A stretch of DNA of 32,000 bases from Staphylothermus hellenicus DSM 12710 (lineage in GTDB: Archaea; Thermoproteota; Thermoprotei_A; Sulfolobales; Desulfurococcaceae): assembly GCF_000092465.1 (NCBI RefSeq), contig NC_014205.1, forward strand, positions 930,001 to 962,000. The letters are read 5' to 3'. The notes under the pieces were generated by a model. The model had not been told where the DNA came from. It saw nothing but the letters and a program-made list of their open reading frames with translations, and made no database searches. This document shows, in pieces, positions 594 through 15,549 of this stretch (positions are counted from its first letter, which is position 1; every line of letters starts with the position of its first letter). The position numbers and the translations under genes are program-made.

Positions 594-2093
594 TTAAGCG
601 GTCTTTTGTTTTATGTGTTTTTGTATTTTTATGGTTAAGTATGCTGTGATGGTTGTTAATATGATTGTTGGGAGGGCTGAGAAGTGTATGATGTAGAAGC
701 TCCATAGGCTGTGGTTTCCTATTATGTATAGGGTTAGGTACATGGTCCATATGGAGTAATATGATAGTAGGAGTTTTCTAAGCTTATCTATTCTTATAGT
801 CCATGGCATAGTTATTATTCCTAGAATGAATCCACATAGGTAAACTATTGGTAAACCCATGCATTTCACTGGTTGATGATTTACTGGGTTTATCCATAAG
901 GTGAAAGATTGCCTGCCTAGAAGCCAGTCTATCGGTGAAGATGAAATTGATCCTATGCTTTTTGTCGATAAGTGCCAATGTATAGCATCTACTATGGATG
1001 CTTGGAACCATTTCTGGAACCCATAATAGTTTATGAAAGGAACCGAGAACAGTATTAATAGTAATGGGAACACTACATAGTATCTGAGCAACGTTCCGAA
1101 AGCGTGTCTTAACTTGTAAAGAATATCTCCTCTTTGAAAGAATCCCTCAATGAATTCAGCTGGTGCAATGAATAATCCAGAAAATTTTATAAGACCTGCT
1201 AAGCTGAACAGAACTGTTCTAGCCACACTGGTTTTGAGTGAAGTGTATGGATATTTTATGAATACATAAACACCAACAACTGTAAATACTGCTAGGAAGG
1301 GATCTAGCATCGCTAATACTCCAACAGTGTGGTATGTATTATCAAAATACATGATAATAGGTGTTATGAGAGACAATAAGACAGCATGTTTTCCTCTAAG
1401 GAAAACTCTGAGTATCTCATATGTTATGAGATATGAGAATGAATATATGAGAGCTGTTGAAACAATACTTGGAATCCTCCAAGAAGCCGGGTTATCGCCT
1501 AATAAAACAATAGATAGCATAATAAAATACTTACCTAGAGGAGGATGTTCAAGGTTAAAGTATTCATTAATACCCCCCTTATCAGGCAAAGCCCATCCAG
1601 GAATAACATCTAAAACACTATAATTTAACCTATTAAAATCCCTAACAACATCGTTGATGGAGCAATTCTTCTTTAGAGAAACATATACAGCATTCAAACC
1701 ACCAACATATAAGCTCCTAGTAAAACTACGATTATCCTTCACAACAGTAACCCTAGCAACAAGTGAACCCCTATATTCATCTTCAACAAGACTAAAACAT
1801 AGCTGACCAGAAACACCATTTAAAATAGATGTATTAAAAGGCTTATCCAATACAACAGTATATAATGAACCAGCAGAACTATTCACCCTAATAGAGTCGT
1901 AACCAAAAATCTTATACAAAATATTCCTAGCAGAAGAAACATACCAAACCTCATCAGAGACATAACAACTCTTAAAACCAAAACCACGAAACAACTCATA
2001 AAGATGTAAGGCATTATTAAAACCTATAAACATCACAAACATGAAAATAATCATAGAAACAACTATAGCCCAACAACCACTACTACAAGACAC
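594..2093 (-). CDS. GT-C fold polytopic membrane glycosyltransferase, PMT/GT39-like
   Basis: 499 aa with many hydrophobic segments. It has a DE motif in the first loop (VSDEVWYV) and an EHPPLGKY motif characteristic of protein O-mannosyltransferase-type GT-C enzymes. No WWDYG motif, so it is not AglB. Confidence 0.6.
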   Translation of the reverse strand: MSCSSGCWAIVVSMIIFMFVMFIGFNNALHLYELFRGFGFKSCYVSDEVWYVSSARNILYKIFGYDSIRVNSSAGSLYTVVLDKPFNTSILNGVSGQLCFSLVEDEYRGSLVARVTVVKDNRSFTRSLYVGGLNAVYVSLKKNCSINDVVRDFNRLNYSVLDVIPGWALPDKGGINEYFNLEHPPLGKYFIMLSIVLLGDNPASWRIPSIVSTALIYSFSYLITYEILRVFLRGKHAVLLSLITPIIMYFDNTYHTVGVLAMLDPFLAVFTVVGVYVFIKYPYTSLKTSVARTVLFSLAGLIKFSGLFIAPAEFIEGFFQRGDILYKLRHAFGTLLRYYVVFPLLLILFSVPFINYYGFQKWFQASIVDAIHWHLSTKSIGSISSSPIDWLLGRQSFTLWINPVNHQPVKCMGLPIVYLCGFILGIITMPWTIRIDKLRKLLLSYYSIWTMYLTLYIIGNHSLWSFYIIHFSALPTIILTTITAYLTIKIQKHIKQKTA

Positions 2094-2143: not shown

Positions 2144-2602
2144 CTAAGGCAACGTTATTGTAGCTGGATACTGCCCACCACTAGCAGTATGAATAACAAT
2201 ACTAACAGTCTGACCACTACTATATGTTCCAGAAGGTATATCAAACTGTATATCAGCACTGCCTCCTGCATTAATAGTAAATGAAAAACCAGTTGCCGGA
2301 GTTGTTATAGGTGCCTGATTATTAATGTTTACCGTCAAACTACTAGGACCTGCTTGACCGATCGGCTTATTATTTATGAATATATCATCTATTGTTGCTG
2401 GTTTTGTCCCTGTATTCTTAGCTGTTATATAAACAGTCCATGCACTACCTGATTTCGTTGCGTATGCGTTTACTATTTCTAGTTTTTCTACTCCTGTAAA
2501 ACTCGATGTTAATCCCGTTATCCACAGTGCTACAGCTATGCTGATGGCTATAGCTACTGCTACAATGATCACGGTTGCAATAACGGGAGATATAGCTTTC
2601 AT
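2144..2602 (-). CDS. archaeal type IV pilin (class III signal peptide), probable major subunit
   Basis: N-terminus MKA/ISPVIATVIIVAVAIAISIAVALWITG is the textbook archaeal pilin/flagellin-like N-terminal domain. The protein is small (152 aa) with a Ser/Thr/Gly-rich body. It has its own 111-bp AT-rich upstream region, with GGGTG 9 nt before the ATG. Confidence 0.85.
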   Translation of the reverse strand: MKAISPVIATVIIVAVAIAISIAVALWITGLTSSFTGVEKLEIVNAYATKSGSAWTVYITAKNTGTKPATIDDIFINNKPIGQAGPSSLTVNINNQAPITTPATGFSFTINAGGSADIQFDIPSGTYSSGQTVSIVIHTASGGQYPATITLP

Positions 2603-2713
2603 ATCGTTTACACCCTATTTATTCTTTTATCTATGCTATTATTATGGTGGTTTGGATTATAAATTGTTTTTTATGGTATATTGTTTTGTATATGAAGCTT
2701 ATATATAAATTAT

Positions 2714-4579
2714 TTATGTTAGCGGCGTTATTGGGCGGTTTTCGTCTCCATATATTCTTACCTGCATTACTCTGTAATAGTAGTTGTAGATGAATACTAG
2801 TTTGGTTGCTGAAGGTACTTTTACTCCATCAATGTTTGCAACTGATATTGTTGCCCATAGGAAATACATGTGGTTGCCATATACTGGTACAAGATTATCT
2901 ACTATGTCATAGTAGAGATCAATTGTTGCTATTCCCGATGTATAGCCGTATGGGAGTTTATAGTATGCATCCATTGTTCCATTTGCAAGATATAGTGTTT
3001 TTTCAGGTGTTAAATCCACATAGTCTAAACCACCACTTATAGTTCGGAGAGAGGGTAGTATTTGGAAAAGTATAGAGTATATTCTTATACCTAGCAACGT
3101 GTTCGGCTGCATATAGGAGTATTTCCTACCATTTATTATTAGGAAGGTGCCTAGCTTAAATGGTATCGTCATGTTTCTGAAACCATATGGATAAGCTGAA
3201 TCAAAAGACATAACATATGTTGCATTTATGCTTTTAACAAACTCCCTATACTCTCCATCCGGTGCTATTATAAAATATTTTATTTCAAACCCTATTGATC
3301 CCCTGCCATTAGATATATAGCCATTATTCCATAATGTAATATTGTAGAATGGCTTGAAATAAGTAATATTAATAGAGTATCCTTCACGTGTCTTACAAGA
3401 TATCCAGTTATAAATTACTTCTAAAACACTCCTCTTAAGAACAGATAATGCCGCCAAACTAGCATTATTCAGAGACTGCTTGAAATTATCGAGGGCTTGA
3501 TAATAATCGTAATCCGCTAAGTTACCAGCTCTAAAAACATATCTGTCCCCTCCAACAATGACATCGAATGTCTTAGAGATCAATAATTCACCGGTCTCAT
3601 CATATACGCTGATAACCCCGTTTCTAAAGATTAGATCAGGGAAAAAGACCTTTGCCTCACCAGAAGAGCCGGCAACCCCCTCATAACTATTTGTTCCATC
3701 AGAAACAACTACTCTCCACCCAGGATGTAAGCCTTCAACATAGATATATTTAGGATCCCTGTTAACAGATAATACAAGTTTATCTATTTCAACATGAGAA
3801 TAGCCTCCAACACCATAGTATAGTCTCTGAGTAGTTGACCCCCTATCATAAGTTATATTAGCCCAAACATTATTGATTTTATCAAACACGTCTAAGCTAA
3901 GTATTCCTGAAGTATAATCATAACCCCCATAATAAACATATGGAGCAGGTACCGATTCCGATAGTTGCCTCCACCATCTATAAGCTCCATTCCGATAATA
4001 TATTACCTCTAGCGTTTGAGAAGGAATATTATTGCCCAGGATATACATGTATCGTATGTAACTAAACAACAGGAAACGGCGGATGCGTATTTGAAACCAG
4101 TCAATATGCTGATCAGCCGTCCCCTTGTAAGCAACATATGCCTGATCATAAAACCTACCGCTTATAGGTATATCAATAATCGCTATGGCGAAATCATTAC
4201 TGCTTTCAAGCACTAAGACTTGTCTATTTGTATCAACATAATGATTATCCGCTATAAATACTAAATTAGATGTATCATCTGTTGAAAAATCCGAATAGTA
4301 TATTGCGCTTCTATCCTCGAGAGATAATGTATAGCTTATCTCATTATATATGGTGTCGAAAGATGAAATAAACTCTTTATAGGCTTTCGTACTAGCGTAT
4401 TTTAGTGCTACAAGATCTAATGTATCAAGTTCTTGATCTATAATGTCCCAGTCATTCTTAACCGTTCCTTTGCTGAGGGATCTGGTATATAGTGTAATCG
4501 ATGTAACATAGAATAAGCTAGCTATTATTAGACCTCCTAAAATAACTATAGCTATAACTATGGGTAGTTGAGCCTTCAC
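2714..4579 (-). CDS. giant pilin-like / N-terminally anchored surface protein (621 aa)
   Basis: GTG start overlaps the upstream stop (GTGA). N-terminus MKAQLPIVIAIVILGGLIIASLFYV fits a K-A/Q-L-P class III-like site plus a hydrophobic helix. The rest is Tyr/Asn/Ile/Thr-rich and poor in charge, with at least 7 N-x-S/T sequons. Confidence 0.6.
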   Translation of the reverse strand: MKAQLPIVIAIVILGGLIIASLFYVTSITLYTRSLSKGTVKNDWDIIDQELDTLDLVALKYASTKAYKEFISSFDTIYNEISYTLSLEDRSAIYYSDFSTDDTSNLVFIADNHYVDTNRQVLVLESSNDFAIAIIDIPISGRFYDQAYVAYKGTADQHIDWFQIRIRRFLLFSYIRYMYILGNNIPSQTLEVIYYRNGAYRWWRQLSESVPAPYVYYGGYDYTSGILSLDVFDKINNVWANITYDRGSTTQRLYYGVGGYSHVEIDKLVLSVNRDPKYIYVEGLHPGWRVVVSDGTNSYEGVAGSSGEAKVFFPDLIFRNGVISVYDETGELLISKTFDVIVGGDRYVFRAGNLADYDYYQALDNFKQSLNNASLAALSVLKRSVLEVIYNWISCKTREGYSINITYFKPFYNITLWNNGYISNGRGSIGFEIKYFIIAPDGEYREFVKSINATYVMSFDSAYPYGFRNMTIPFKLGTFLIINGRKYSYMQPNTLLGIRIYSILFQILPSLRTISGGLDYVDLTPEKTLYLANGTMDAYYKLPYGYTSGIATIDLYYDIVDNLVPVYGNHMYFLWATISVANIDGVKVPSATKLVFIYNYYYRVMQVRIYGDENRPITPLT

Positions 4580-4962
4580 CTAAACCCCACCCTTACATAG
4601 TATTTATAGAATAAACCATTATCATCAAGCCTAGAAATATTGAATTCATAGATTAAAGTAACATTTTGGTTCCGCGGAATAATTGAATAGTAATCAGTAC
4701 TTATAACTTGGCAATTAGTAATGTTGATAATAGTTATATTTACAACAACGTAGCTAGCCTCCAATTCATCTATGATTGTATATGCTAGTTCCCTAGCTGT
4801 CCAAGAAACTTTCGAGTATATGATCGAGTATACATCGTAGTTGCGTGTACGAATATTTATTGTTGTAGAATATGGAAATATGTTGATATAGTAGATAATA
4901 ACCAATAAGATCATAAGTATTGATGCTAGATATGCTGATATAACAATAGCTTGGGACTTCAT
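4576..4962 (-). CDS. small pilin-like protein (128 aa from the ATG; track ORF extends to GTG at 4980)
   Basis: ATG at 4962-4960 overlaps the upstream TGA (ATGA). N-terminus MKSQAIVISAYLASILMILLVIIYYI. Four N-x-S/T sequons. Confidence 0.6.
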   Translation of the reverse strand: MKSQAIVISAYLASILMILLVIIYYINIFPYSTTINIRTRNYDVYSIIYSKVSWTARELAYTIIDELEASYVVVNITIINITNCQVISTDYYSIIPRNQNVTLIYEFNISRLDDNGLFYKYYVRVGFR

Positions 4963-6107
4963 CCCTGAAACCTCCTCCACACAGTTATTATTATATCGTA
5001 ATTAACCATTCCTATTCTCGCAGTATATGTTGTCTCATATGTGACCCAGTTAGAAGGAGTTGGTTCACCAATTAATAGTTCGTGCGGATAAATTATAGCA
5101 TAGTATATTTTGCCATCAGCGTCTCTAAGAAATATAAATACTAAATTGTATATTGGGTATTGAATATCGAATGAATGGGAGCTTGTTTCTACTATAATAT
5201 CATAGAGTGTTGCAAGGCTCCCAGCATAATATTCGTATTCTATATAGTGAGTATCTTTTTCTACATAGTTCTGTAATCTATGTAAACGATAGGTTATTCC
5301 ATTAATTGTGGCTTGATCATAATAAGTAGCAACATATCTGGAAAGGTACTGTTTGTAATAACCATAACCTATATAATAATTAGAGCCTGATTGAAACCAT
5401 GTTAGATTAACTATAAAGTTACCAGTGACAATTGAGTAATTATAGAATTGTCCTTGTGTATAGTAAATTAAAACAGCATTTATAGCTTCTGAGCCGGATA
5501 CTGTATAATAGTTTGGTTGCGGAACTGTGTCGGGTACTGCTATGGTGATCTTGTTATTAACATTATAAGCGTATACTTCATATATGTTTTCCGAGACCCA
5601 GTATCCTATATATCTAGCAACTCCTGTTTCTAGAATGGCGGATACGGCAATTATATTTGTCCTAGAAGTGGTGATTGTGTAGAGAAATGTTCCGTTTGGT
5701 AAAGTGGTAGTTGGGTTATCTAATGTGTAATTACTATATGATAGATCATCGTAGACCACGCATACAGTTAGTTTTCCAGGACTTGTCGTGTATACTTGTA
5801 CATTGTTATCTTGAACATTTACTTTACTAATTCCCGAAGAAACTATTCTAACATTATATCCTATTTCTCTAGACAGGTTTAGTCTGGAAGAAATAGCTTT
5901 CGCGATATCAGTTATTTGGGGCGTGAAGTTTCCTTGGGAAGATATATTGTTTAATACATCTCTTATACCGCTTGACATGTATAGTAGGGTGCTACTCTCT
6001 ATTATGGGCGGGTTTGTTGTTGAAAAATCTGTAACAATAACGTCAAATATGGGTATGAAGGAAACTATTATTAAAGCTGCTAAAACATATTCTATGAGTT
6101 CTTTCAT
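4959..6107 (-). CDS. large pilin-like / N-terminally anchored surface protein (382 aa)
   Basis: ATGA overlap with the upstream gene. N-terminus MKELIEYVLAALIIVSFIPIFDVIV. Very Tyr-rich (e.g. YYIGYGYYKQYLSRYVATYY), with 7 sequons. Confidence 0.6.
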   Translation of the reverse strand: MKELIEYVLAALIIVSFIPIFDVIVTDFSTTNPPIIESSTLLYMSSGIRDVLNNISSQGNFTPQITDIAKAISSRLNLSREIGYNVRIVSSGISKVNVQDNNVQVYTTSPGKLTVCVVYDDLSYSNYTLDNPTTTLPNGTFLYTITTSRTNIIAVSAILETGVARYIGYWVSENIYEVYAYNVNNKITIAVPDTVPQPNYYTVSGSEAINAVLIYYTQGQFYNYSIVTGNFIVNLTWFQSGSNYYIGYGYYKQYLSRYVATYYDQATINGITYRLHRLQNYVEKDTHYIEYEYYAGSLATLYDIIVETSSHSFDIQYPIYNLVFIFLRDADGKIYYAIIYPHELLIGEPTPSNWVTYETTYTARIGMVNYDIIITVWRRFQG

Positions 6108-6613
6108 CTATATATTGCCCCCTTAACAACTATGTTCATAAATATATTATTGTCTAATACCTTAATGTCTAAGTAGGTAATTGTTGAACTACCAAATAAT
6201 ACGGGATCGTTTATCATATTTATAGTTATATAGCCACTTATTGTTTCTACTATTTTCTTCTCCACATGAATAGTATTATCCGGTGTAGTTATGACTACGT
6301 ATATTGAATTATCACTTGGTACATTGAATATTTTATATTGGGATCTTATAGCTGCTCCCGTACCTATTATTATATTGTATTGTTGCCCATACCCGGCTTG
6401 CGGTGGATACATTAGTCTTATTGATAAATTATTATGCCACATTAACGCATATAGTATCTGTGTGGAAATGGAATCAGCAACTCTCTTAAAGTTGTTGACT
6501 AGGTTATCGTTTTTCATTATGGTAACTGTGCTTGATACATGTAGTATTACGAATGCTAACACGATCACTAGTGTTAGGGTACCGATCATATGGATTATAG
6601 CGGGTGAAGCCAC
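6104..6613 (-). CDS. pilin-like / N-terminally anchored protein (169 aa)
   Basis: GTG start shares one nt with the upstream TAG. N-terminus MASPAIIHMIGTLTLVIVLAFVILHVSS (alternative ATG at codon 9). Confidence 0.55.
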   Translation of the reverse strand: MASPAIIHMIGTLTLVIVLAFVILHVSSTVTIMKNDNLVNNFKRVADSISTQILYALMWHNNLSIRLMYPPQAGYGQQYNIIIGTGAAIRSQYKIFNVPSDNSIYVVITTPDNTIHVEKKIVETISGYITINMINDPVLFGSSTITYLDIKVLDNNIFMNIVVKGAIYR

Positions 6614-7374
6614 TAGGTGATCACCACATATAATTGTTCAACGCTTAATAATAAGTTCACAGTATAGCCTTGAGTGAATATATGGGATGGCTCGTATGAT
6701 CGGATGGTTTCGCCCGTAGCACTGTTTATTTCTCTAATAACGAGCCCTTCAATATTGTTTATTTGCTTCTCCAGTGCTTTTCCTCCCGGTACAAACATTA
6801 TTGTTCTCGGGCCGGATACATATCTTGGTCTTAGCTGTAAATAATATATCCTAATATATATCTCCGTATGTGTTCCGTCGGTGACATTGTATATGTGGAT
6901 GTAGAATCTGGATGTGTTAAAGTTTATAGTTGATGCCCCCTCTTGATAGTATTCCCATATTGTTGGTATGAAGGCTATATCGTTTACTGTTAGGTTGTTG
7001 ACGCCATAGATGATCTTGTTGCTTGTGACCACTACATTGGATGATCTAATCTCGATAGCTGATGGCGAATCATCAACAATTATATTTTTCCACCCGGAAC
7101 TTGTGAGGACATCGACTTCATAAACTATATTTTCACGGACATTATATCCTACTCCTACAGTTCCCTTTGGAACAGATATTGAAATACTTGTTCCCTTAAT
7201 TATTTCTGGGACTGACGCGGCTATATTGATCATTGATGATTTCATATATCCATACTCTGATACCTGCATGGATGTTGTTAATGAATTGATCGCTATATAG
7301 AATATCATTATACTTACCATTATGATTACAGAGGATATTATAACTGTAGATATTGCTTCGCTAATCCCCTTCAA
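6613..7374 (-). CDS. pilin-like protein with class III-type signal (253 aa)
   Basis: TTG start is preceded by GGGTG, 10 nt after the platform-gene stop. N-terminus MKG/ISEAISTVIISSVIIMVSIMIFYIAI. Confidence 0.65.
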   Translation of the reverse strand: MKGISEAISTVIISSVIIMVSIMIFYIAINSLTTSMQVSEYGYMKSSMINIAASVPEIIKGTSISISVPKGTVGVGYNVRENIVYEVDVLTSSGWKNIIVDDSPSAIEIRSSNVVVTSNKIIYGVNNLTVNDIAFIPTIWEYYQEGASTINFNTSRFYIHIYNVTDGTHTEIYIRIYYLQLRPRYVSGPRTIMFVPGGKALEKQINNIEGLVIREINSATGETIRSYEPSHIFTQGYTVNLLLSVEQLYVVIT

Positions 7375-7384
7375 TTCTACACCC

Positions 7385-9160
7385 TCACGTAACCGGCTGG
7401 GTTACTCCTCCAAGCATTGTGGTGAGCAGCGGTGATGCTAGGAAGAATATGAGTGTGAAGAATGTTAGTAGGATGGCGTGTTTGAATCCCGCAGCCACCG
7501 ATCCTGATGATACTTTACCGGCTACAAGACCCATTAAATAGGTGTTGATAACTATTGCTGGCAATGTTGTTGAGGCTGCTTGAATATATGATCCGCCAGC
7601 ACCGAATTGTAGTGATCCCATGAATACTGCTAGCATTATTACTGTTGCCGCCGTAAGTATTCCACCCATGTATGGAACTATTAGGAGGGTTCTAAGATTC
7701 TTCTTTTTCTCATCCTCAATAGCATCTACGCTTTCAGCAAACCATGCTAGGTGCTCCATTATCTCAACACTTCCACCGCCAACCTCGATCGTGTCTGTTA
7801 ATACGAATAATAATACTTTTGCTCTCCAAACAATTATTTTCTTGAATAGTTCCTGGATTATCCTAGATAATGGTATTCCAAGGCTTAGTTGGAGAGCTAT
7901 CTTTCTTAAATACTTTGTGAATACGCCATAGTTTCTACGTGAAAGCTCAATAATGCTTCTCTCCGGAGACAATCCTGTCTTACGTATCTCTACTAGGTCT
8001 CTGAGAAACCTTGTTATACCTGTTATTACTTTGTATTCTCTACTAATTATTTCCGTATAGATCGTTGTTGGCAGGGTGGCTATGATTAATATCATTGATA
8101 AAGCTACTGAGGAATAAGTATATGCTGGAAGATTAAATATCTTAGCCGGGTATACTAGGAAATCATATGTTTCACTAACCAGTATATTGCTTCTAAAAGG
8201 ATGGCCAGGCGGTAGAATTGCTGGGAACAACATGCCGAAGAATACGAGGAAGAATGATAGGGGAAGAGTTAATCCTCCAAACATTATATATGGGCGATAA
8301 TCAATCCATGGCTCCTTATACTGGGTTACATCTGTTAAATAAATAATCATGCCCGAAATCATAGGGATCAATATGTAGAGGACAAGGAATAAGCTAGCAG
8401 GCGATAATCCGAATGGAACTGCTGATACAAAAGATACAGTTACAAAATACATAACCGCCAAACTAATCAAGGATAATAGGACTAGCGCCAAATATGCTTC
8501 TAGGAGACCCGCTAATCTATCAGCTATAATCTTCATTCTAACAATTAGTTCAGAAAACAATAACCTAGCTTTCTTATTCAAATAATCAGCTACATCCCCA
8601 CCTGCCCTAACAGTTGTTACATAACCCATTAATAGATCCCTTGCTGTTGGACTAGGTGTTCTCTGAGCTAACATGCTGAAAGCTGTTAACGGATCCCTCC
8701 CTAGAACCCTTACCAATAATATGAATCTCTGGCTAAGCTCTGCTGTCTTAGTAAATACTTTGCTTGCATGAGTAATTCTCTCAAAAGCAACGTAGGGCGA
8801 TAAACCACTCATAACCATCATGCTTAGATAAGCAGTTGTATATGGGAACTCGCCCTCTATCCCGCCGGCTCTACTACTCCCTATGAGAGCTGGTAGATAA
8901 GCTAGAAAAATATATGCGAGAAAAGGTATGGGGACCAGGAAAGGTATGATAATATACATTTTCATTGCTGCGAATAATATTGTTAAAACAACTGTTACAC
9001 CACTAATCAATATAGACATAAACGCCATAAAAGAAGCATATACTTCGGGATACAGATGCATCCCGCTCCTACGTATATCGCTTGATAAGTTCGGATACAT
9101 TCTAAGAATATACTTGCCTAAACCCTCAAAATACCTATAAACCCAATCCCAAAAGGACAT
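7385..9160 (-). CDS. type IV pilus platform membrane protein (TadC/FlaJ/T2SS-F family)
   Basis: 591 aa polytopic protein with a duplicated architecture. It has two cytoplasmic helical segments (..ELSQRFILLVRVLGRDPLTAF.. and ..FLRDLVEIRKTGLSPERSIIEL..) between blocks of TM helices. It is adjacent and divergent to the secretion ATPase. Confidence 0.85.
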   Translation of the reverse strand: MSFWDWVYRYFEGLGKYILRMYPNLSSDIRRSGMHLYPEVYASFMAFMSILISGVTVVLTILFAAMKMYIIIPFLVPIPFLAYIFLAYLPALIGSSRAGGIEGEFPYTTAYLSMMVMSGLSPYVAFERITHASKVFTKTAELSQRFILLVRVLGRDPLTAFSMLAQRTPSPTARDLLMGYVTTVRAGGDVADYLNKKARLLFSELIVRMKIIADRLAGLLEAYLALVLLSLISLAVMYFVTVSFVSAVPFGLSPASLFLVLYILIPMISGMIIYLTDVTQYKEPWIDYRPYIMFGGLTLPLSFFLVFFGMLFPAILPPGHPFRSNILVSETYDFLVYPAKIFNLPAYTYSSVALSMILIIATLPTTIYTEIISREYKVITGITRFLRDLVEIRKTGLSPERSIIELSRRNYGVFTKYLRKIALQLSLGIPLSRIIQELFKKIIVWRAKVLLFVLTDTIEVGGGSVEIMEHLAWFAESVDAIEDEKKKNLRTLLIVPYMGGILTAATVIMLAVFMGSLQFGAGGSYIQAASTTLPAIVINTYLMGLVAGKVSSGSVAAGFKHAILLTFFTLIFFLASPLLTTMLGGVTQPVT

Positions 9161-9388: not shown

Positions 9389-11158
9389 ATGCAATCTCTT
9401 AGAAAGATTTTATCAAGGTTTTCACGCGGGGAAGAGAAGAGAAGATTAAAAAAGATTCCTGGAGAGGAAGAGGTTTCTGAAGCTGTTAAATCAATTATTG
9501 TCCCAGTAGAGCCTATTCAGGTTGCAAAACGTGATCCTAGCTGGAGAATTATTGAGAGCTACTATGTATATAAACCATTCGTAAAAGTTATAATTACTGA
9601 AACACCTCAGGGACCAATGTATTTTGTTGAAGAATACGGTCTTACACCGAGTGATAAAGAAGTATTGGAGAAGCTCACGAATATTTTGATGGATGAAATA
9701 CGTCCCCCGACAAGGCCCGAAGATATCAAGGACTTGAAAGGATATGTTTTCAAAGAAACAGAGAGAATTGCTGATAAGTATAGGGAGAAACTTGGACTTG
9801 TTGGTGCCCGTAGGATCAAGTTGCTCTACTATATTGAGAGAAACCTATTAGGATACGGACCCATCGATCCATTAATGAGGGATCCAAACATAGAGGATAT
9901 ATCTTGTAATGGAGTAAACATACCAATATATGTTTGGCACAAGAAATACGAGAGCATCCCGACAAACATCACCTTCATAGATGAAGACTACTTGAACGAG
10001 TTCGTTATGAAAATGGCTCATATGGCTGGTAAACATATCAGTATAGCTTTCCCGATCCTAGACGCTATGTTGCCTGAAAAACACCGTTTAGCAGCTACTT
10101 TTGGTAGAGAAGTATCTGTTAAAGGCCCAACATTCACCATACGTAAGTTCCGCGAGAAACCATTTAGTGTTACAGAAATTATTCAATCAGGAGTCATTAA
10201 TAGTCTTGTAGCAGCTTATCTATGGACTCTCATAGAGCACGGCAAAACAGCGATGATCGCTGGCGGTACAGGTGTTGGTAAAACAACCATGTTAAACGTT
10301 GTCAGCATGTTTATCCGTCCCGGAATGAAGATTGTCACCATTGAGGACACACCAGAGATCAACCTACCACATCCAAACTGGGTACAATTAACAAGTAGGG
10401 AAACATACCTAGTAGGAACAAGCTCGCTGGGAACAAATATACGTTTATTCGACCTAGTAAAACTAAGCCTAAGATATAGGCCAGACTATATAATAGTTGG
10501 AGAGGTAAGAGGAGAAGAAGCATTCGTACTATTCCAAGCAATGGCTACAGGCCATGGTGGCTTATCAACCATTCACGCTGAAACACTTGATTACGCTATT
10601 AAGAGGTTGACAAGTCCGCCAATGAATATTCCGCCAACATATATGAAGCTCATGAATACGTTTATTCATCTACAACGTGTGATTGCACGTATTGAGAAGG
10701 GTGTTGTTAAGGTCCGGAGGAGAGCAACTATTGTACAGGAAGTCGAGGATTTCGGTAAGTATAGAACTATAGCTGTATGGGATCCTAGAACAGACCAGTT
10801 CAAAGTCAATCTCGAGGAAAGCATACATTTAAGAGATATTGCTGCAAAACGTGGATTAGAGCTTGAAGACATAATTGATGAAATATATCGTAAAGCAACC
10901 GTACTAAACTGGATGATCTATAAGAACATATTGAATGTATGGGATGTTTCACGGATAATATTCAACTACTACTATGATCCAGCTTCAGTATATAAGAGAG
11001 CTGTTAGAGAGCTTGAAGAAGCGGGTCGTGAAAAAGGCGTTTCCACAATGGTTGCTCCAGAAGAAGTAGCTTCCACAGAGGAATTAGTGGGTGGAACTAA
11101 AGAGATGGGAGAAGCAACTAAGGAATTATTTGAGAGAACAAGAGAGCTTGGAAAATAA
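9389..11158 (+). CDS. type IV pilus/secretion ATPase (FlaI/TadA/VirB11-GspE superfamily)
   Basis: Walker A AGGTGVGKTT, Walker B region PDYIIVGEVRGEEA, His box ATGHGGLSTIHA. 589 aa with an acidic ~49-aa C-terminal tail. Confidence 0.95.
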   Translation: MQSLRKILSRFSRGEEKRRLKKIPGEEEVSEAVKSIIVPVEPIQVAKRDPSWRIIESYYVYKPFVKVIITETPQGPMYFVEEYGLTPSDKEVLEKLTNILMDEIRPPTRPEDIKDLKGYVFKETERIADKYREKLGLVGARRIKLLYYIERNLLGYGPIDPLMRDPNIEDISCNGVNIPIYVWHKKYESIPTNITFIDEDYLNEFVMKMAHMAGKHISIAFPILDAMLPEKHRLAATFGREVSVKGPTFTIRKFREKPFSVTEIIQSGVINSLVAAYLWTLIEHGKTAMIAGGTGVGKTTMLNVVSMFIRPGMKIVTIEDTPEINLPHPNWVQLTSRETYLVGTSSLGTNIRLFDLVKLSLRYRPDYIIVGEVRGEEAFVLFQAMATGHGGLSTIHAETLDYAIKRLTSPPMNIPPTYMKLMNTFIHLQRVIARIEKGVVKVRRRATIVQEVEDFGKYRTIAVWDPRTDQFKVNLEESIHLRDIAAKRGLELEDIIDEIYRKATVLNWMIYKNILNVWDVSRIIFNYYYDPASVYKRAVRELEEAGREKGVSTMVAPEEVASTEELVGGTKEMGEATKELFERTRELGK

Positions 11159-11185: not shown

Positions 11186-12094
11186 TTATAATTCAGAAGC
11201 GTATTCTCTAAGATCGACAGTAAATACGTCTGCTTGTTTTCCTTCAAGAACGCATTCAATTTCCTTTACACCAACTTCTCTATTAAACAATTTCTTAAAG
11301 AACCCCTCTATAATGCCTTTAGTCATATTTCCAGCTTTCCCGACAAAACCATGTTCCGAACCATATTTTGCAAGAGCTGTGCACTCATAATTATTTCTAA
11401 TAATGATCCTATAACTGTTTCCAAGTTCTTCTAAACCTTCTATCTCCATATCTCCTAATCCTAGAGCTTTACATACGTAAATAAACATTTTGAGAGAATC
11501 TCTCAGTCTTTCTTCATAATTCCTCTCAACATCCTTCATTAGCCCAGATATAAATATATCATAGATCGATTCTCCTATTCCTCTACCAAAATCCGTTAAG
11601 AAAGCGGCAGCGTTAAGCATTCCTTTTTTATACACGTAGTAAATAGCTCTTTCAATCATTCTTTTCGTAATAATAACTGATTCATCGTCAAGGAGTAATA
11701 GTCTATTGTATTTTAGGAAAACATAGCTATTAGTAGAAGTGATCACATCTATTTTTACAATATCATTCCCCAATTTATTCAGTATCCCATTTTTCAATTC
11801 TTCACCACAAGATTTATCACAATCATCAACAAGGATCAATATGAAACCATAATCACCATAAGCTATATTGGTCACATTAAGTTTGATTATATTTTTGCCT
11901 TTACCAGTTATTACTTCTGTGATCCTATGCATTATTCCCGGCTTATTTTTAGCTTTTAACAATAATAGTGATAATGGTTTATCCTCAGAGAAATATACAG
12001 TATCCAGGTAGAGGTCAGGAATATCCTCTTCTCTTTTCCTAACTATAGGCCCTTTCTTCTTTAATACTATTTTCCAAAAAGTCAATAATATCAC
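11186..12094 (-). CDS. ACT-like + V4R domain small-molecule-binding regulatory protein
   Basis: N-terminal half resembles an ACT fold (LSLLLLKAKNKPGIMHRITEVITGKGKNIIKLNV). C-terminus NNYECTALAKYGSE..GKAGNMTKGIIEGFFKKLF..VKEIECVLEGKQADVFTV matches the V4R (4-vinyl reductase) pattern. Confidence 0.55.
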   Translation of the reverse strand: MILLTFWKIVLKKKGPIVRKREEDIPDLYLDTVYFSEDKPLSLLLLKAKNKPGIMHRITEVITGKGKNIIKLNVTNIAYGDYGFILILVDDCDKSCGEELKNGILNKLGNDIVKIDVITSTNSYVFLKYNRLLLLDDESVIITKRMIERAIYYVYKKGMLNAAAFLTDFGRGIGESIYDIFISGLMKDVERNYEERLRDSLKMFIYVCKALGLGDMEIEGLEELGNSYRIIIRNNYECTALAKYGSEHGFVGKAGNMTKGIIEGFFKKLFNREVGVKEIECVLEGKQADVFTVDLREYASEL

Positions 12095-12218
12095 CTAGAG
12101 TCATACGCTATAAATTCATACAATATGCATTATATATTATTTTAATGAATAATATATAAAAGTCCTAATCGATGATTCAAAATATTCTTGGAGGAAAATC
12201 TTTATAATATATAGTTCT

Positions 12219-12992
12219 TTATTTTGTTTGGATCACTTCTACTTTATAGGGTAGATTTAGATCTATCATCGAAGTTATTACTTCTAAATCATTCTTAATG
12301 TTTTCCTTTAATTTTTCGATATCGCATTTGCCTAGGAACCCTTTCTTTTTAACATATACTCTAATATATATTATTCCACGGCTAATTGCTAGTTTTACAT
12401 CTACGAGTTTACAACCATATAGTGGAGCAAGATCTTCAACGTCTTGCTTGGTTTTATCGATTAATTCCTTGAGCATCTTGGAGAACTCCATTATTTTTGG
12501 TTCTTTTTTCTCAGCAGCATGAATAGTTGTGGGTACTATTTTCTTCTTAGTAATGAATTCCCTGTATACAGTCTTAGGTGCTTCCCGTGTTTTCTCCTCC
12601 TCATATGGTTGTATCTCGAATAACTTGAAGGTTAAGGGTTTAATTTTAGATGCGAGTATAAGTGTTGCTAAAGGTCTTAAACCAACTATTCTCGTACCCT
12701 TATCGGGATCTGTTTCGGCAGAAGAAACTATTACTCCGTGATCAATATATATAATGTATCTTTTATTGTTAAGCTCCGTAGTTAATAATACTTCTTTATC
12801 TTTACCAAGCTCATTAATCTTAAGCATATCTTCATATCCCAGTGTTATCTTCTTTAAAAACTTGCTCCGCATAAGTAGTTGGGCTTCGAAAGTAATATCA
12901 CTTAAAACATTCATTCTACCTGTATCAATTGGAAGAGACGCTATGATCTCATATACTTCTTTCTCCTCCTCGCCCAAATCTCCGCTCCTCAC
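12219..12992 (-). CDS. hypothetical protein (257 aa): two domains joined by a charged linker
   Basis: Long ORF with normal archaeal composition. I recognised no diagnostic motif. Confidence 0.65.
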   Translation of the reverse strand: MRSGDLGEEEKEVYEIIASLPIDTGRMNVLSDITFEAQLLMRSKFLKKITLGYEDMLKINELGKDKEVLLTTELNNKRYIIYIDHGVIVSSAETDPDKGTRIVGLRPLATLILASKIKPLTFKLFEIQPYEEEKTREAPKTVYREFITKKKIVPTTIHAAEKKEPKIMEFSKMLKELIDKTKQDVEDLAPLYGCKLVDVKLAISRGIIYIRVYVKKKGFLGKCDIEKLKENIKNDLEVITSMIDLNLPYKVEVIQTK

Positions 12993-13130
12993 ATACTAGA
13001 GTTAAAAAATAATGCTCCATATAATTCAAGTCTATTAATAGTTCTTGTTAAATAGATATTTAGAACACTAGATATAAGCTTAGCCCGCCGATATTGTTAA
13101 ATATTTTATGAACAAGCATGTATATGTGTA

Positions 13131-13402
13131 GTCCTGCCCAGGATGCGGTGGTTGGCTGAAGCACCTAGTAGGGCGGGTCTTAGCAACTCTAAGGATGAGG
13201 GGTTTTCCTCCCCCTCCAAGCATCTTCCCGGAGTGGTGAAGAAGATGATCCGCTCTAGGAAGGTGTGGATAGGGAGGGGGAGTGGGGTTACCCTGAATGG
13301 GGGCGAGACCAATGAAATGCCCCCAATGAACCCAGAGGGGGATGAGGCCAATGTGCCCCAAGGCCCATATCCGCGTTTATGAGCGGATATGAGCTGAACC
13401 CC
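13131..13402 (+). ncRNA. G+C-rich structured RNA, identity unresolved (SRP RNA and RNase P RNA considered)
   Basis: ~57% G+C by hand count against ~33% in the flanks, with several long helices readable by eye. G-U pairs work only on the + strand. A TATA-like stretch (13097-13108) lies upstream. Ends are approximate. Confidence 0.55.
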
Positions 13403-13425
13403 ATTACTTATAACCGCTACTATGA

Positions 13426-14772
13426 TTAAACCAATATCTGTGATATAGGTATTAGGGATGAGTATAGCAGTTTTAAATCCGACCTATAAGGTTCCGGAAC
13501 ATTAGTATTAATATTCATTATAATAACTATTTTTTGAGTACCACCAGTATTTAGGCTTACCATAAAGTTTACCAATCTATAAACTTCTTTCCATCCGCCA
13601 AGACTTATCATGAAATCTAGTAGGTCCTCGACCAATATGATCGGGGTAGAACCTTGTGAAAACAATTCTCTAACACCTCTTATAAGGACAGAATTGTCCG
13701 CAAATAATTCATATTGTTTAAAACATATAGACGACATACATTCTGTGCTTGCCTCTATTCTATATAGTGATTCTAATCCATGACCAATACTAACCTTATG
13801 TATCTCGGCGATTCCCAGTTTCCTTAATGCTTCTATATCACTAATTATTTTTGAATAAAGTTCATCCCAAGTCTTGGAGTGAGGCCTGCTAATAAACATT
13901 ATAACTTTCTTGTTACCATTAATATTGCTTAGTATTTCTTTCATAATCTCCATGATCTTTGCAGGCTTAGGTTTTTTGCTTCTAACTAATACCATGATTG
14001 AACCAGATTTTTTCAAAGATACCTTTTTGATGGAGAAATATAGTGGAGCAGATAAATCAGTGAAGTGGATATTGTAGAATAATATAATGTATCCTATCAA
14101 GAGCAGTATGCTAATAACATCAGCCCATAAATTTACCGAGTACATGAGTAAGGAGAATATTAATAAGGTGTCAATCAGTATTAAATGTGATTGCATTATG
14201 TATAGAGTATTTTTACCATTATAATATAATAGGAATACTGCTTTAGAAATATAGAGTATAAAGAACAATAGTATTATGAATAATTTGAATGCTAGGTATG
14301 AATTATCATATAATGAATAAATACTGACTAATACACTTGTAATAGTTACAATGATTATATGCATACTTACTAAAGTATTAAGTTCGTGTCCTAGATGTTT
14401 TTCCTTACTAAATCGAAGAATATTTATAATTCCGGCATAAACATCGAACTCGTTGCCCAGCATCCAAAAAGAAGAGATCTTATATATTAGCAATAAAATT
14501 ATTAGTAGAATTGCTAATACATTTATTATCCCAAACATGATCATATAGGATCCTAAAATAATAGTGTATATCAGTAAACCCGCTGATACTAAATATGTGA
14601 TAATATGTATGTTGAGAAATCTTGTAATTCCTCGAAAAGGCCGTGCATAATGAATATGCTTGTTATAGCTGTATAAACATATAAGTAGTAGGTATAAAGA
14701 TATAAATATTATAAGCCAAGATTTCTCAAGAGACGATATGGTAATGCTAATCATACCAATATAGTCTCCCAA
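13426..14772 (-). CDS. polytopic membrane protein with C-terminal degenerate KaiC/RecA-like (DUF835-type) domain
   Basis: About 8 hydrophobic segments in the first ~240 aa. The C-terminal ~190 aa (..STPIILVEDLLDFMISLGGWKEVYRLVNFMVSLNTGGTQKIVIIMNINT..) lacks a Walker A. TTG start at 14772 abuts the KaiC-like stop; alternative ATG at 14754. Confidence 0.65.
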   Translation of the reverse strand: MGDYIGMISITISSLEKSWLIIFISLYLLLICLYSYNKHIHYARPFRGITRFLNIHIITYLVSAGLLIYTIILGSYMIMFGIINVLAILLIILLLIYKISSFWMLGNEFDVYAGIINILRFSKEKHLGHELNTLVSMHIIIVTITSVLVSIYSLYDNSYLAFKLFIILLFFILYISKAVFLLYYNGKNTLYIMQSHLILIDTLLIFSLLMYSVNLWADVISILLLIGYIILFYNIHFTDLSAPLYFSIKKVSLKKSGSIMVLVRSKKPKPAKIMEIMKEILSNINGNKKVIMFISRPHSKTWDELYSKIISDIEALRKLGIAEIHKVSIGHGLESLYRIEASTECMSSICFKQYELFADNSVLIRGVRELFSQGSTPIILVEDLLDFMISLGGWKEVYRLVNFMVSLNTGGTQKIVIIMNINTNVPEPYRSDLKLLYSSLIPISQILV

Positions 14773-15549
14773 TTAATGTTCCTCCATATAACCAGCGCCA
14801 CGACTAACTTCTTTAGTGAAGGGAACATATGGCTCGATTAGTTCATGTATAAGTTTTAACCCAACAGTATAATCTACTTGGACTTCATATGGTGTTTTAA
14901 CTATATTAAACATTCTCGACTTTACTGGTACAAGTCTCACAGCTAATCTGGGAACTCCAGATGTTATCCATACATAATCCATTAACAATACTATATCTGC
15001 TATAAACTCTTCAGATGAGGAAAGAGCTGTTGTTGAGAACAATGGTAATTCTCCAATTAGTATGGTTGTTAAATCATTATCTATTGTTAAATGATATAGT
15101 CGAGTAATAAGTGTTCTTATTTGTTGCATTTTGAGATATAATGTTAAAGCATTAACACTATCTATAACTAAGTTCTTAGCATTTAGGCTACTTATCAAAT
15201 TCTCTATGTTTTCAAATAAGTCTAGTATTCTTTTAGAATCATAGCCATATATAGGGGGAGCGCCTGCGAAGTATATTGTATTATTTTCAATAAACTTTAC
15301 TAAATCATCGTAAAAGGAGAAGCCTCTAAAATGCTCTATGAACAATTCCTTGTTCTCAATGAGAGACACATATACTCCCTTCTCGTTTTCCTTAGCCCTA
15401 TTAATCAAGTATGTGGTGGCGAAGGTTGTTTTACCAACTCCTGGATGCCCTAAAACATATATCGTCCCCGGCCTTGGAAGCCCCTTATTCGCTAATATTC
15501 TCGTGTCTATATCGAGCATACCTGTTTTTATGAATTTAAGGCGAGGCAA
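14773..15549 (-). CDS. KaiC-like / RecA-superfamily ATPase (ArlH/FlaH-like size class)
   Basis: Walker A GHPGVGKTT, Walker B NLVIDSVNAL. Single-domain, 258 aa, TTG start. Confidence 0.85.
   Translation of the reverse strand: MPRLKFIKTGMLDIDTRILANKGLPRPGTIYVLGHPGVGKTTFATTYLINRAKENEKGVYVSLIENKELFIEHFRGFSFYDDLVKFIENNTIYFAGAPPIYGYDSKRILDLFENIENLISSLNAKNLVIDSVNALTLYLKMQQIRTLITRLYHLTIDNDLTTILIGELPLFSTTALSSSEEFIADIVLLMDYVWITSGVPRLAVRLVPVKSRMFNIVKTPYEVQVDYTVGLKLIHELIEPYVPFTKEVSRGAGYMEEH

Follow-up and report, generated by a model that had tools for sequence, protein, structure and literature searches.

A five-gene accessory module in a clade 4A archaeal type IV pilus locus of Staphylothermus hellenicus: a candidate priming and tip complex with a lectin-fold subunit

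In bacteria, two sets of minor pilins, GspH/I/J/K and FimU-PilVWXE together with PilY1, have been proposed to prime and cap the filament (summarised in PMC9934059). For the PilA-PilB-PilC complex of Streptococcus sanguinis, tip location and a role in adhesion have been proposed, and its PilC is a modular minor pilin with an immunoglobulin (Ig)-like and a concanavalin A (ConA)-like lectin module (PMC9934059). In archaea, the Epd pilus of Methanococcus requires several minor pilins for piliation, and large DUF2341 proteins are its proposed tip adhesins (PMC4858521). Here we consider five consecutive genes, A to E, in a stretch of 32,000 nucleotides (nt) from Staphylothermus hellenicus DSM 12710 (NC_014205.1, positions 930,001 to 962,000; hereafter the window, whose numbering we use). 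They constitute an accessory module of a type IV pilus (T4P) locus of the clade (or subsystem) 4A found in Desulfurococcales.

Loci of this type were described by Makarova et al. (2016; PMC4858521), who proposed that they encode a "minor pilin set". Their clade 4A loci, related to Aap, bear arCOG08836, 08837, 10426, 10615 and 03511; S. hellenicus is counted in the first four, as is S. marinus. For these loci that paper offers no structures and states of the components that their origin "could not be traced". It also describes large class III proteins in archaeal T4P loci, which contradicts the view of an initial annotation of this DNA that pilin-like proteins of such size are unusual for archaeal pili. 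The published table for Desulfurococcus fermentans (Table S4) lists proteins of 254/254-870-367-129-140/272 amino acids (aa), and on that table the comparison rests: clade 4A loci resemble the window (253-169-382-128-621 aa) in size and order, and the D. fermentans layout is the same, with a divergent ATPase gene, a platform gene and genes for a pilin-like protein of ~250 aa, proteins of ~370 and ~129 aa and further secreted proteins. The tree file of the same paper places GI 297526959, an S. hellenicus ATPase, in a group with the ATPase from the D. fermentans locus that bears arCOG08836; from gene context only, we infer that it is the ATPase of the window. A 2026 preprint (10.64898/2026.04.22.720090) describes subsystem 4A with accessory genes downstream of the platform gene and, often, a PilY-like adhesin. 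For this genome, neither the gene set nor its reading as minor pilins is new. The gain is one of refinement: the module anatomy of the largest protein, the distinction of canonical from non-canonical N-termini, and the shuffling of an adhesive cartridge. The three-module protein E, its ConA-like fold and the movement of the cartridge were not found stated in the clade 4A description (PMC4858521) and are added by the present analysis.

Organization and conservation of the five genes

All five genes lie on the minus strand, directly behind the platform gene: A (6613-7374, TTG start; protein p253, 253 aa), B (6104-6613, GTG; p169, 169 aa), C (4959-6107, ATG; p382, 382 aa), D (4576-4962; p128, 128 aa from ATG) and E (2714-4579, GTG; p621, 621 aa). 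Read directly from the sequence, the open reading frames (ORFs), their lengths, the three non-ATG starts and the junctions are as the initial annotation gave them. The platform gene and A are separated by 10 nt (GGGTGTAGAA) between TGA and TTG; A and B have one nucleotide in common in TAG/GTG (-1 nt); and B/C, C/D and D/E overlap in ATGA, ATGA and GTGA, respectively (-4 nt each). A Shine-Dalgarno-like motif of GGTG/GGAGG type lies 5-10 nt before each start at the five junctions. The longest ORF for D begins with a GTG at 4980 (134 aa), an alternative that only lengthens the leader by six residues. This in-frame extension, "MEEVSG" (4962-4980), has a counterpart beginning "MEE.." in several orthologs; it overlaps, in another frame, the conserved ...VWRR C-terminus of p382, and its seeming conservation is probably a by-product of that overlap.

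That the genes belong to a T4P locus, as first claimed, follows from their neighbors. The platform gene, the first of the operon (7385-9160, minus strand), encodes a TadC/PilC/FlaJ-like protein of 591 aa (Pfam T2SSF, E=1.1e-17) with weak, sub-threshold matches to UpsF, BasF and ArlJ. Adjacent to and divergent from it is the gene of the assembly ATPase (9389-11158, plus strand), a FlaI/VirB11-type protein of 589 aa (Pfam T2SSE, E=4.7e-34). The ATPase scores 371 bits with NCBIfam FlaI and 242 bits with BasE, both under their cut-offs, as is the case for the other named systems.

The conservation of the block was checked in roughly 14 related loci of Desulfurococcales, and the order platform-A-B-C-D-E is syntenic in every locus recovered: in S. 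marinus, in a metagenome lineage (three contigs), in GCA_054039355.1 and in ten loci from metagenome-assembled genomes of Desulfurococcales. Protein identity to the window is 41-53% in the metagenome lineage and 33-43% in GCA_054039355.1, and the platform protein is 67-90% identical across the related loci. The scan of the genome collection with the platform alignment employed very specific peptide patterns and found only close relatives (67-74% identity); with these patterns the loci of Desulfurococcus, Thermogladius and Thermosphaera were not retrieved. When the alignments of the five proteins were concatenated and used as one query, to reach homologs of every family, no matches were obtained. 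A more distant T4P locus (L020; GCA_038862705.1, 2191-11516) has the same order, the platform gene being followed by genes for 257, 272, 184, 432, 161 and 1171 aa.

Tight gene packing is also common in other parts of the window. As judged by comparing sequences, the overlaps of A to E exceed chance in one respect: the pattern -1, -4, -4, -4 is kept at 30-50% protein identity, in most lineages (including loci L007, L013, L014, L015 and L016). In nine related loci one to five major-pilin genes follow E, always behind a spacer of 89-203 nt, while A to E overlap. Three of the families are stable in size, B with 168-170 aa (10 loci), C with 382-444 aa (all loci) and D with 127-138 aa. Insertions make the others variable: A ranges from 249 to 635 aa and E from 316 to 665 aa, and in one lineage (L010/L011) B reaches 819-886 aa.

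Each of the five products has exactly one strongly hydrophobic segment, from residue 1 to ~35, and none elsewhere. Counts of composition and hydrophobicity agree with what had been said of these proteins: K+R+E+D make up 12-18% of their residues vs. 21-33% in the cytosolic proteins of the window, and Y+N+I+T+V 39-53% vs. 25-36%; Tyr accounts for 10-12% of p382, p128 and p621. The sequon numbers given earlier for p253, p169, p382, p128 and p621 are exact (3, 1, 7, 4 and 7). The numbers expected from the content of N and S/T are similar (3.2, 2.2, 5.0, 1.5 and 4.8, in the same order), and the sequons therefore reflect composition; a specific enrichment was considered and rejected.

N-termini and the modules of protein E

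We took as a class III signal a short charged leader ending in [KR]-[G/A/S] and followed by ~20 hydrophobic residues. By this definition, three of the five proteins first described as pilin-like are canonical, p253 (MKG/ISEAISTVII, the slash marking the end of the leader), p128 (MKS/QAIVISAYL) and p621 (MKA/QLPIVIAIV); p169 and p382 are not. When orthologs of these three are compared, the length of the charged leader ranges between 2 and 12 residues but the [KR][GAS] site and the residues after it do not change, as one would expect of class III signal peptides. The A orthologs by themselves cover this full range (2-12 residues), with [KR][GA] as their conserved site, and the N-terminal 33 residues of A match the profile of the major-pilin family (hhalign probability 93%, E=3.8e-7). 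In size and position A agrees with arCOG08836 ("Pilin, FlaG/FlaF/PilA family"). D, which keeps M[KR][SA]Q in 9 loci, agrees in the same way with arCOG10426 (129 aa, FlaFind-positive).

B and C are bitopic. The sequence of p169 opens with MASPAIIHMIG, where K/R is absent ahead of the hydrophobic stretch, as is a K/R-G/A site; the B N-terminus is conserved as M[AV][ST]..I.H.IG, in which H8, I10 and G11 are invariant in 10 loci. With its one N-terminal hydrophobic segment p169 has no match in Pfam, NCBIfam or the PDB. The N-terminus of p382 (MKELIEYVLAALII) starts MKELIEY, and its position -1 is not G/A/S; in C orthologs it is conserved as MKE[IL][IV]EY, and as MRVIEY in L010/L011. The protein is Tyr-rich, with a conserved IEY.LA...S.IP and a C-terminal RIGM..Y.....WRR. 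Both p169 and p382 may be unprocessed. Neither the five proteins, nor 11 members of the A family, nor 37 E-related proteins have a Pfam or NCBIfam family, and when the profile of each of the five families was run against PDB sequences, there was nothing but noise at E<=5. Descent of the five genes from recent duplications was considered and rejected; hhalign found similarity only between the N-terminus of A and the pilin.

Protein E is the largest of the set. A profile search with p621 in 1.84 billion representative proteins gave 112 matches and splits the protein into three separable modules. Profile positions 1 to ~80 and ~360-635 co-occur in E-position proteins of 304-460 aa that have no middle module, and positions 360-635 match proteins in the E position only. 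Positions ~75-360 are found on their own, in many cases C-terminally, in ~60 further surface proteins of archaea (420-1170 aa). The AlphaFold2 (AF2) model of p621, built from 37 sequences, has a mean predicted local distance difference test score (pLDDT) of 90.7. In it a helix (residues 5-35), a segment of low confidence (31-40) and a second helix (43-77) are followed by beta domains. The first of these, residues 83-272 (3764-4333), is a predicted ConA-like beta-sandwich of the legume-lectin/glucanase kind: the top 50 Foldseek matches in the PDB all have the ConA-like fold (E=1e-7 to 3e-6, target-normalised template modelling score 0.45-0.6) and are mostly legume lectins, along with lectin-like inhibitors, arcelins and one glucanase. 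Among viral models (BFVD), it matches the LamG/ConA-like domains found in tail proteins and receptor-binding proteins of phages. The second, residues 278-351 (3527-3748), is a small Ig/prealbumin-like beta-sandwich, delineated by the AF2 strands, with the motif PGWRVVV...GGDRY, which is also found at the C-termini of the ~60 other surface proteins and recurs in protein B of L011 (blastp E=2e-5). The remainder, residues 359-621 (2717-3505), is specific to the E family and consists of a long helix (359-398) and a beta-rich domain (strands 402-610), with pLDDT >90.

What was called a 621-aa "giant" is thus a pilin-like protein into which a cartridge of lectin and Ig-like modules is inserted. The pilin-like N-terminus ascribed to it stands; its size comes from the insert and not from a giant pilin fold. 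In the distant locus L020 the last protein (1171 aa) ends in the same lectin and Ig-like module.

Cartridges of this kind occupy other subunits elsewhere. In L013/L016, A carries DUF2341 (E about 1e-17) and a weak L-type-lectin match as an insert, and in L010/L011 it is the enlarged B that carries DUF2341; by Pfam, DUF2341 occurs in these relatives only, and the proteins of the window have no match to it. By sequence comparison, the adhesive cartridge (DUF2341 and lectin) has moved between A, B and E across lineages. That sister lineages have it in A or B in place of E is in line with a joint, exposed location of these subunits. L018 (7098-9518) provides a further case: there the lectin and Ig-like module of p621 forms part of P0035 (505 aa), whose N-terminus is pilin-like (MKGVSSVVAAALALVIVLAV). 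The gene for P0035 belongs to a small cluster of three, and neither an ATPase nor a platform gene lies within 8 kb of it; the module thus also travels on stand-alone class III proteins.

The closest worked-out analogue, by architecture, is the S. sanguinis PilA-PilB-PilC tip complex. Like p621, PilC is a class III protein with Ig-like and ConA-like lectin modules, encoded with other minor pilins. No sequence homology between the two was detected, and the likeness is architectural. The arrangement differs: the modules of PilC are appended C-terminally, whereas those of p621 sit as an insert between two helices, with a further domain of 260 aa behind. The system of the window is archaeal with a TadC-like platform, unlike that of S. 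sanguinis, and glycan binding by p621 is a prediction.

A priming and tip complex and its alternatives

We favor, at a probability of about 0.55, the view that A to E form a priming and tip complex of the minor-pilin kind, on which a lectin adhesin is displayed. Translation of the platform transcript would yield the five proteins at a low and constant ratio; they would enter the membrane, and a prepilin peptidase would trim A, D and E. B and C, lacking the cleavage motif, may join the complex unprocessed or remain as membrane anchors. Together, the five would form an initiation complex on the platform and prime polymerisation of the abundant, separately transcribed pilin of 152 aa. Type IV filaments grow from the base, and hence the initiation complex would end at the distal tip. 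There the lectin module of E would bind glycans on surfaces, polymers or other cells.

The proposal has counterparts in the better known systems. As with GspH/I/J/K and FimU-PilVWXE plus PilY1, the window has a clustered set of pilin-like proteins, presumably co-expressed and of low abundance, one of them bulky, and a large putative adhesin. The set differs in having five families rather than four, two of them without a prepilin site, and in lacking the beta-propeller domain of PilY1. The Epd pilus of Methanococcus is likewise an archaeal T4P with several minor pilins, but its ATPase belongs to clade 2 rather than 4A, its accessory families are unrelated, and DUF2341 is absent from the window proteins. 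A broader claim, which we put forward tentatively and regard as the less probable side of the question, is that this archaeal clade evolved an initiation and tip complex of its own, non-homologous to HIJK/PilY1, with three processed and two unprocessed subunits and a lectin/DUF2341 cartridge exchangeable, in different lineages, among at least A, B and E. Of the overall reading in the initial annotation, the pilus accessory set is partly supported; the priming and tip function is still conjectural; and the minor-pilin set had already been proposed (PMC4858521). Two findings named beforehand as contrary to that reading, missing synteny in relatives and homology of the large proteins to S-layer or solute-binding families, were looked for and not observed.

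Several results weigh against a priming and tip complex of minor pilins. The class III motif is absent from p169 and p382. By pairwise hhalign the five families have no detectable similarity to each other or, except for the N-terminus of A, to the major pilin; nor was any sequence or profile similarity found to GspH/I/J/K, FimU/PilVWX, the PilY1 beta-propeller (Pfam/NCBIfam, E<=0.1) or any solved pilin. No pilin is among the Foldseek matches of p621, which the lectin domain dominated. AF2 models were made for p621 and p382, and that of p382, from an alignment of six close sequences, is weak (pLDDT 63): residues 92-340 are beta-rich and the N-terminus lies below pLDDT 50, and Foldseek with this model gave noise only. 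The genes of the window do not include a prepilin peptidase (A24). Further points come from S. marinus F1. Its Smar_1477 (L007, 10001-11473), the nearest named homolog of p621 (85% identity), has 490 aa, diverges after residue ~463 and has lost most of the C-terminal domain; and behind the E ortholog there is no major pilin or PMT gene but a TrkA-type gene on the opposite strand. This pilus locus looks rearranged or decaying, and since the E ortholog is truncated and the pilin gene not adjacent, the system may be dispensable in culture. The literature yielded no mention of the S. marinus orthologs, S. marinus being counted in the arCOGs as noted above.

The same N-termini can be read in another way. 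Some or all of A to E, at least B and C, may be kept in the membrane by their N-terminal helices and form a base or anchor complex comparable to FlaF/FlaG (ArlF/G). As a collar or stator, it would lead the filament across the S-layer and the pseudo-periplasm, which is wide in Staphylothermus, and the lectin would bind S-layer glycans. This main rival, which we consider unlikely, would account for the single N-terminal membrane helix in every protein and for the strictly conserved N-termini of B and C, which have no class III cleavage motif. It is also in keeping with the archaellum analogy drawn by Makarova et al. (2016), where the A family is filed as "FlaG/FlaF/PilA" (PMC4858521). However, no FlaF/FlaG family of Pfam or NCBIfam matches any of the five proteins or the 11 A-family members, and the leaders of A, D and E are of the cleavable type and differ in length from ortholog to ortholog. 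A lectin/DUF2341 cartridge that can be swapped is, moreover, more typical of exposed adhesins, and its structural neighbors are phage receptor-binding proteins.

The lectin/glucanase-fold module of E and the glycoprotein-like composition of the proteins bring to mind a bindosome-like structure or pseudopilus, that is, a short envelope structure of class III proteins, put together by the ATPase and platform and capturing carbohydrates or other substrates, as proposed for Sulfolobus Bas, in place of a long adhesive pilus. The ATPase and platform protein do have some similarity to BasE and BasF, but it is weak and sub-threshold (242 bits vs. a cut-off of 1000 for BasE, and 54 vs. 1300 for BasF). 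No solute-binding-protein domain was found with Pfam or NCBIfam, a typical major pilin, with as many as five copies, comes after the block, and published ATPase trees put this locus with clade 4A and Bas in 4I (PMC4858521). We regard this reading as improbable. It is effectively excluded that the five are no part of the pilus system, being secreted or surface proteins of some other kind (S-layer, solute-binding or the like) whose genes merely lie beside its locus: for all that none of them has a family assignment, they are strictly co-linear with the platform gene, their overlaps are conserved across lineages at 30-50% protein identity, class III motifs are present, and the S-layer or solute-binding homology that had been feared was looked for in Pfam, NCBIfam and the PDB and not found.

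Neighboring genes and implications

Behind E lies an AT-rich spacer of 111 nt (2603-2713, minus strand) with TTTATA-type boxes and a GGGTG 7 nt before the pilin ATG; it probably holds a promoter of the major pilin's own. The major pilin (2144-2602, minus strand; 152 aa) begins MKA/ISPVIATVIIVAVAIAI, a textbook archaeal N-terminus (Pfam Pilin_N, E=2.8e-4; NCBIfam arch_flag_Nterm, 20.2 bits for a cut-off of 20 bits). It has a weak match to UpsA, and its stop codon is followed by an oligo-T run. Adjoining it is the gene of a membrane glycosyltransferase (594-2093, minus strand), a PMT/GT-C-like protein of 499 aa (Pfam PMT, E=7.7e-8). Pilin and PMT genes are also paired in L002-L004 (in L002 at 12117-14126) and in D. 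fermentans (rows 1205-1209 of Table S4, PMC4858521). The recurrence of a PMT/GT-C-like enzyme near a PilA-type major-pilin gene in several Desulfurococcales suggests a dedicated pilin glycosylation enzyme. Scans of the window for tRNAs and Rfam families gave no matches.

The pilus ATPase is free of inteins in the window (589 aa) and in L016/L017. It has one or two (1055-1531 aa; Intein_splicing and LAGLIDADG matches) in L002 (647-5242), L005 (2016-5183), L007 (1773-4982), L010, L013, L014 and L015. Breaks in tblastn alignments near query residues 299 and 387 suggest two insertion sites.

Two further gene pairs lie beyond the ATPase gene. A KaiC-like ATPase (258 aa, 14773-15549) abuts, with zero gap between stop and start, a 448-aa protein without a family match (13426-14772). 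KaiC-like ATPases accompany archaella (FlaH/ArlH), and a link of this pair (13426-15549) to the pilus locus 2 kb away is possible. Nearer to the pilus ATPase (11186-12992) are an ACT + V4R protein of 302 aa and a 257-aa protein without a Pfam match, a pair also present in S. marinus and L005; at the equivalent place D. fermentans has an uncharacterised protein of arCOG08835 (PMC4858521). The ACT + V4R and 257-aa proteins may be regulatory partners of the pilus locus.

We found no report of an archaeal T4P whose tip or priming complex has been defined by experiment. The present locus is compact and well conserved, and its protein E is modelled with high confidence, which makes it a testable candidate for such a complex in archaea. 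If the broader claim made above is true, the binding specificity of these pili would be re-tooled by exchange of a cartridge, with the assembly core left unchanged.

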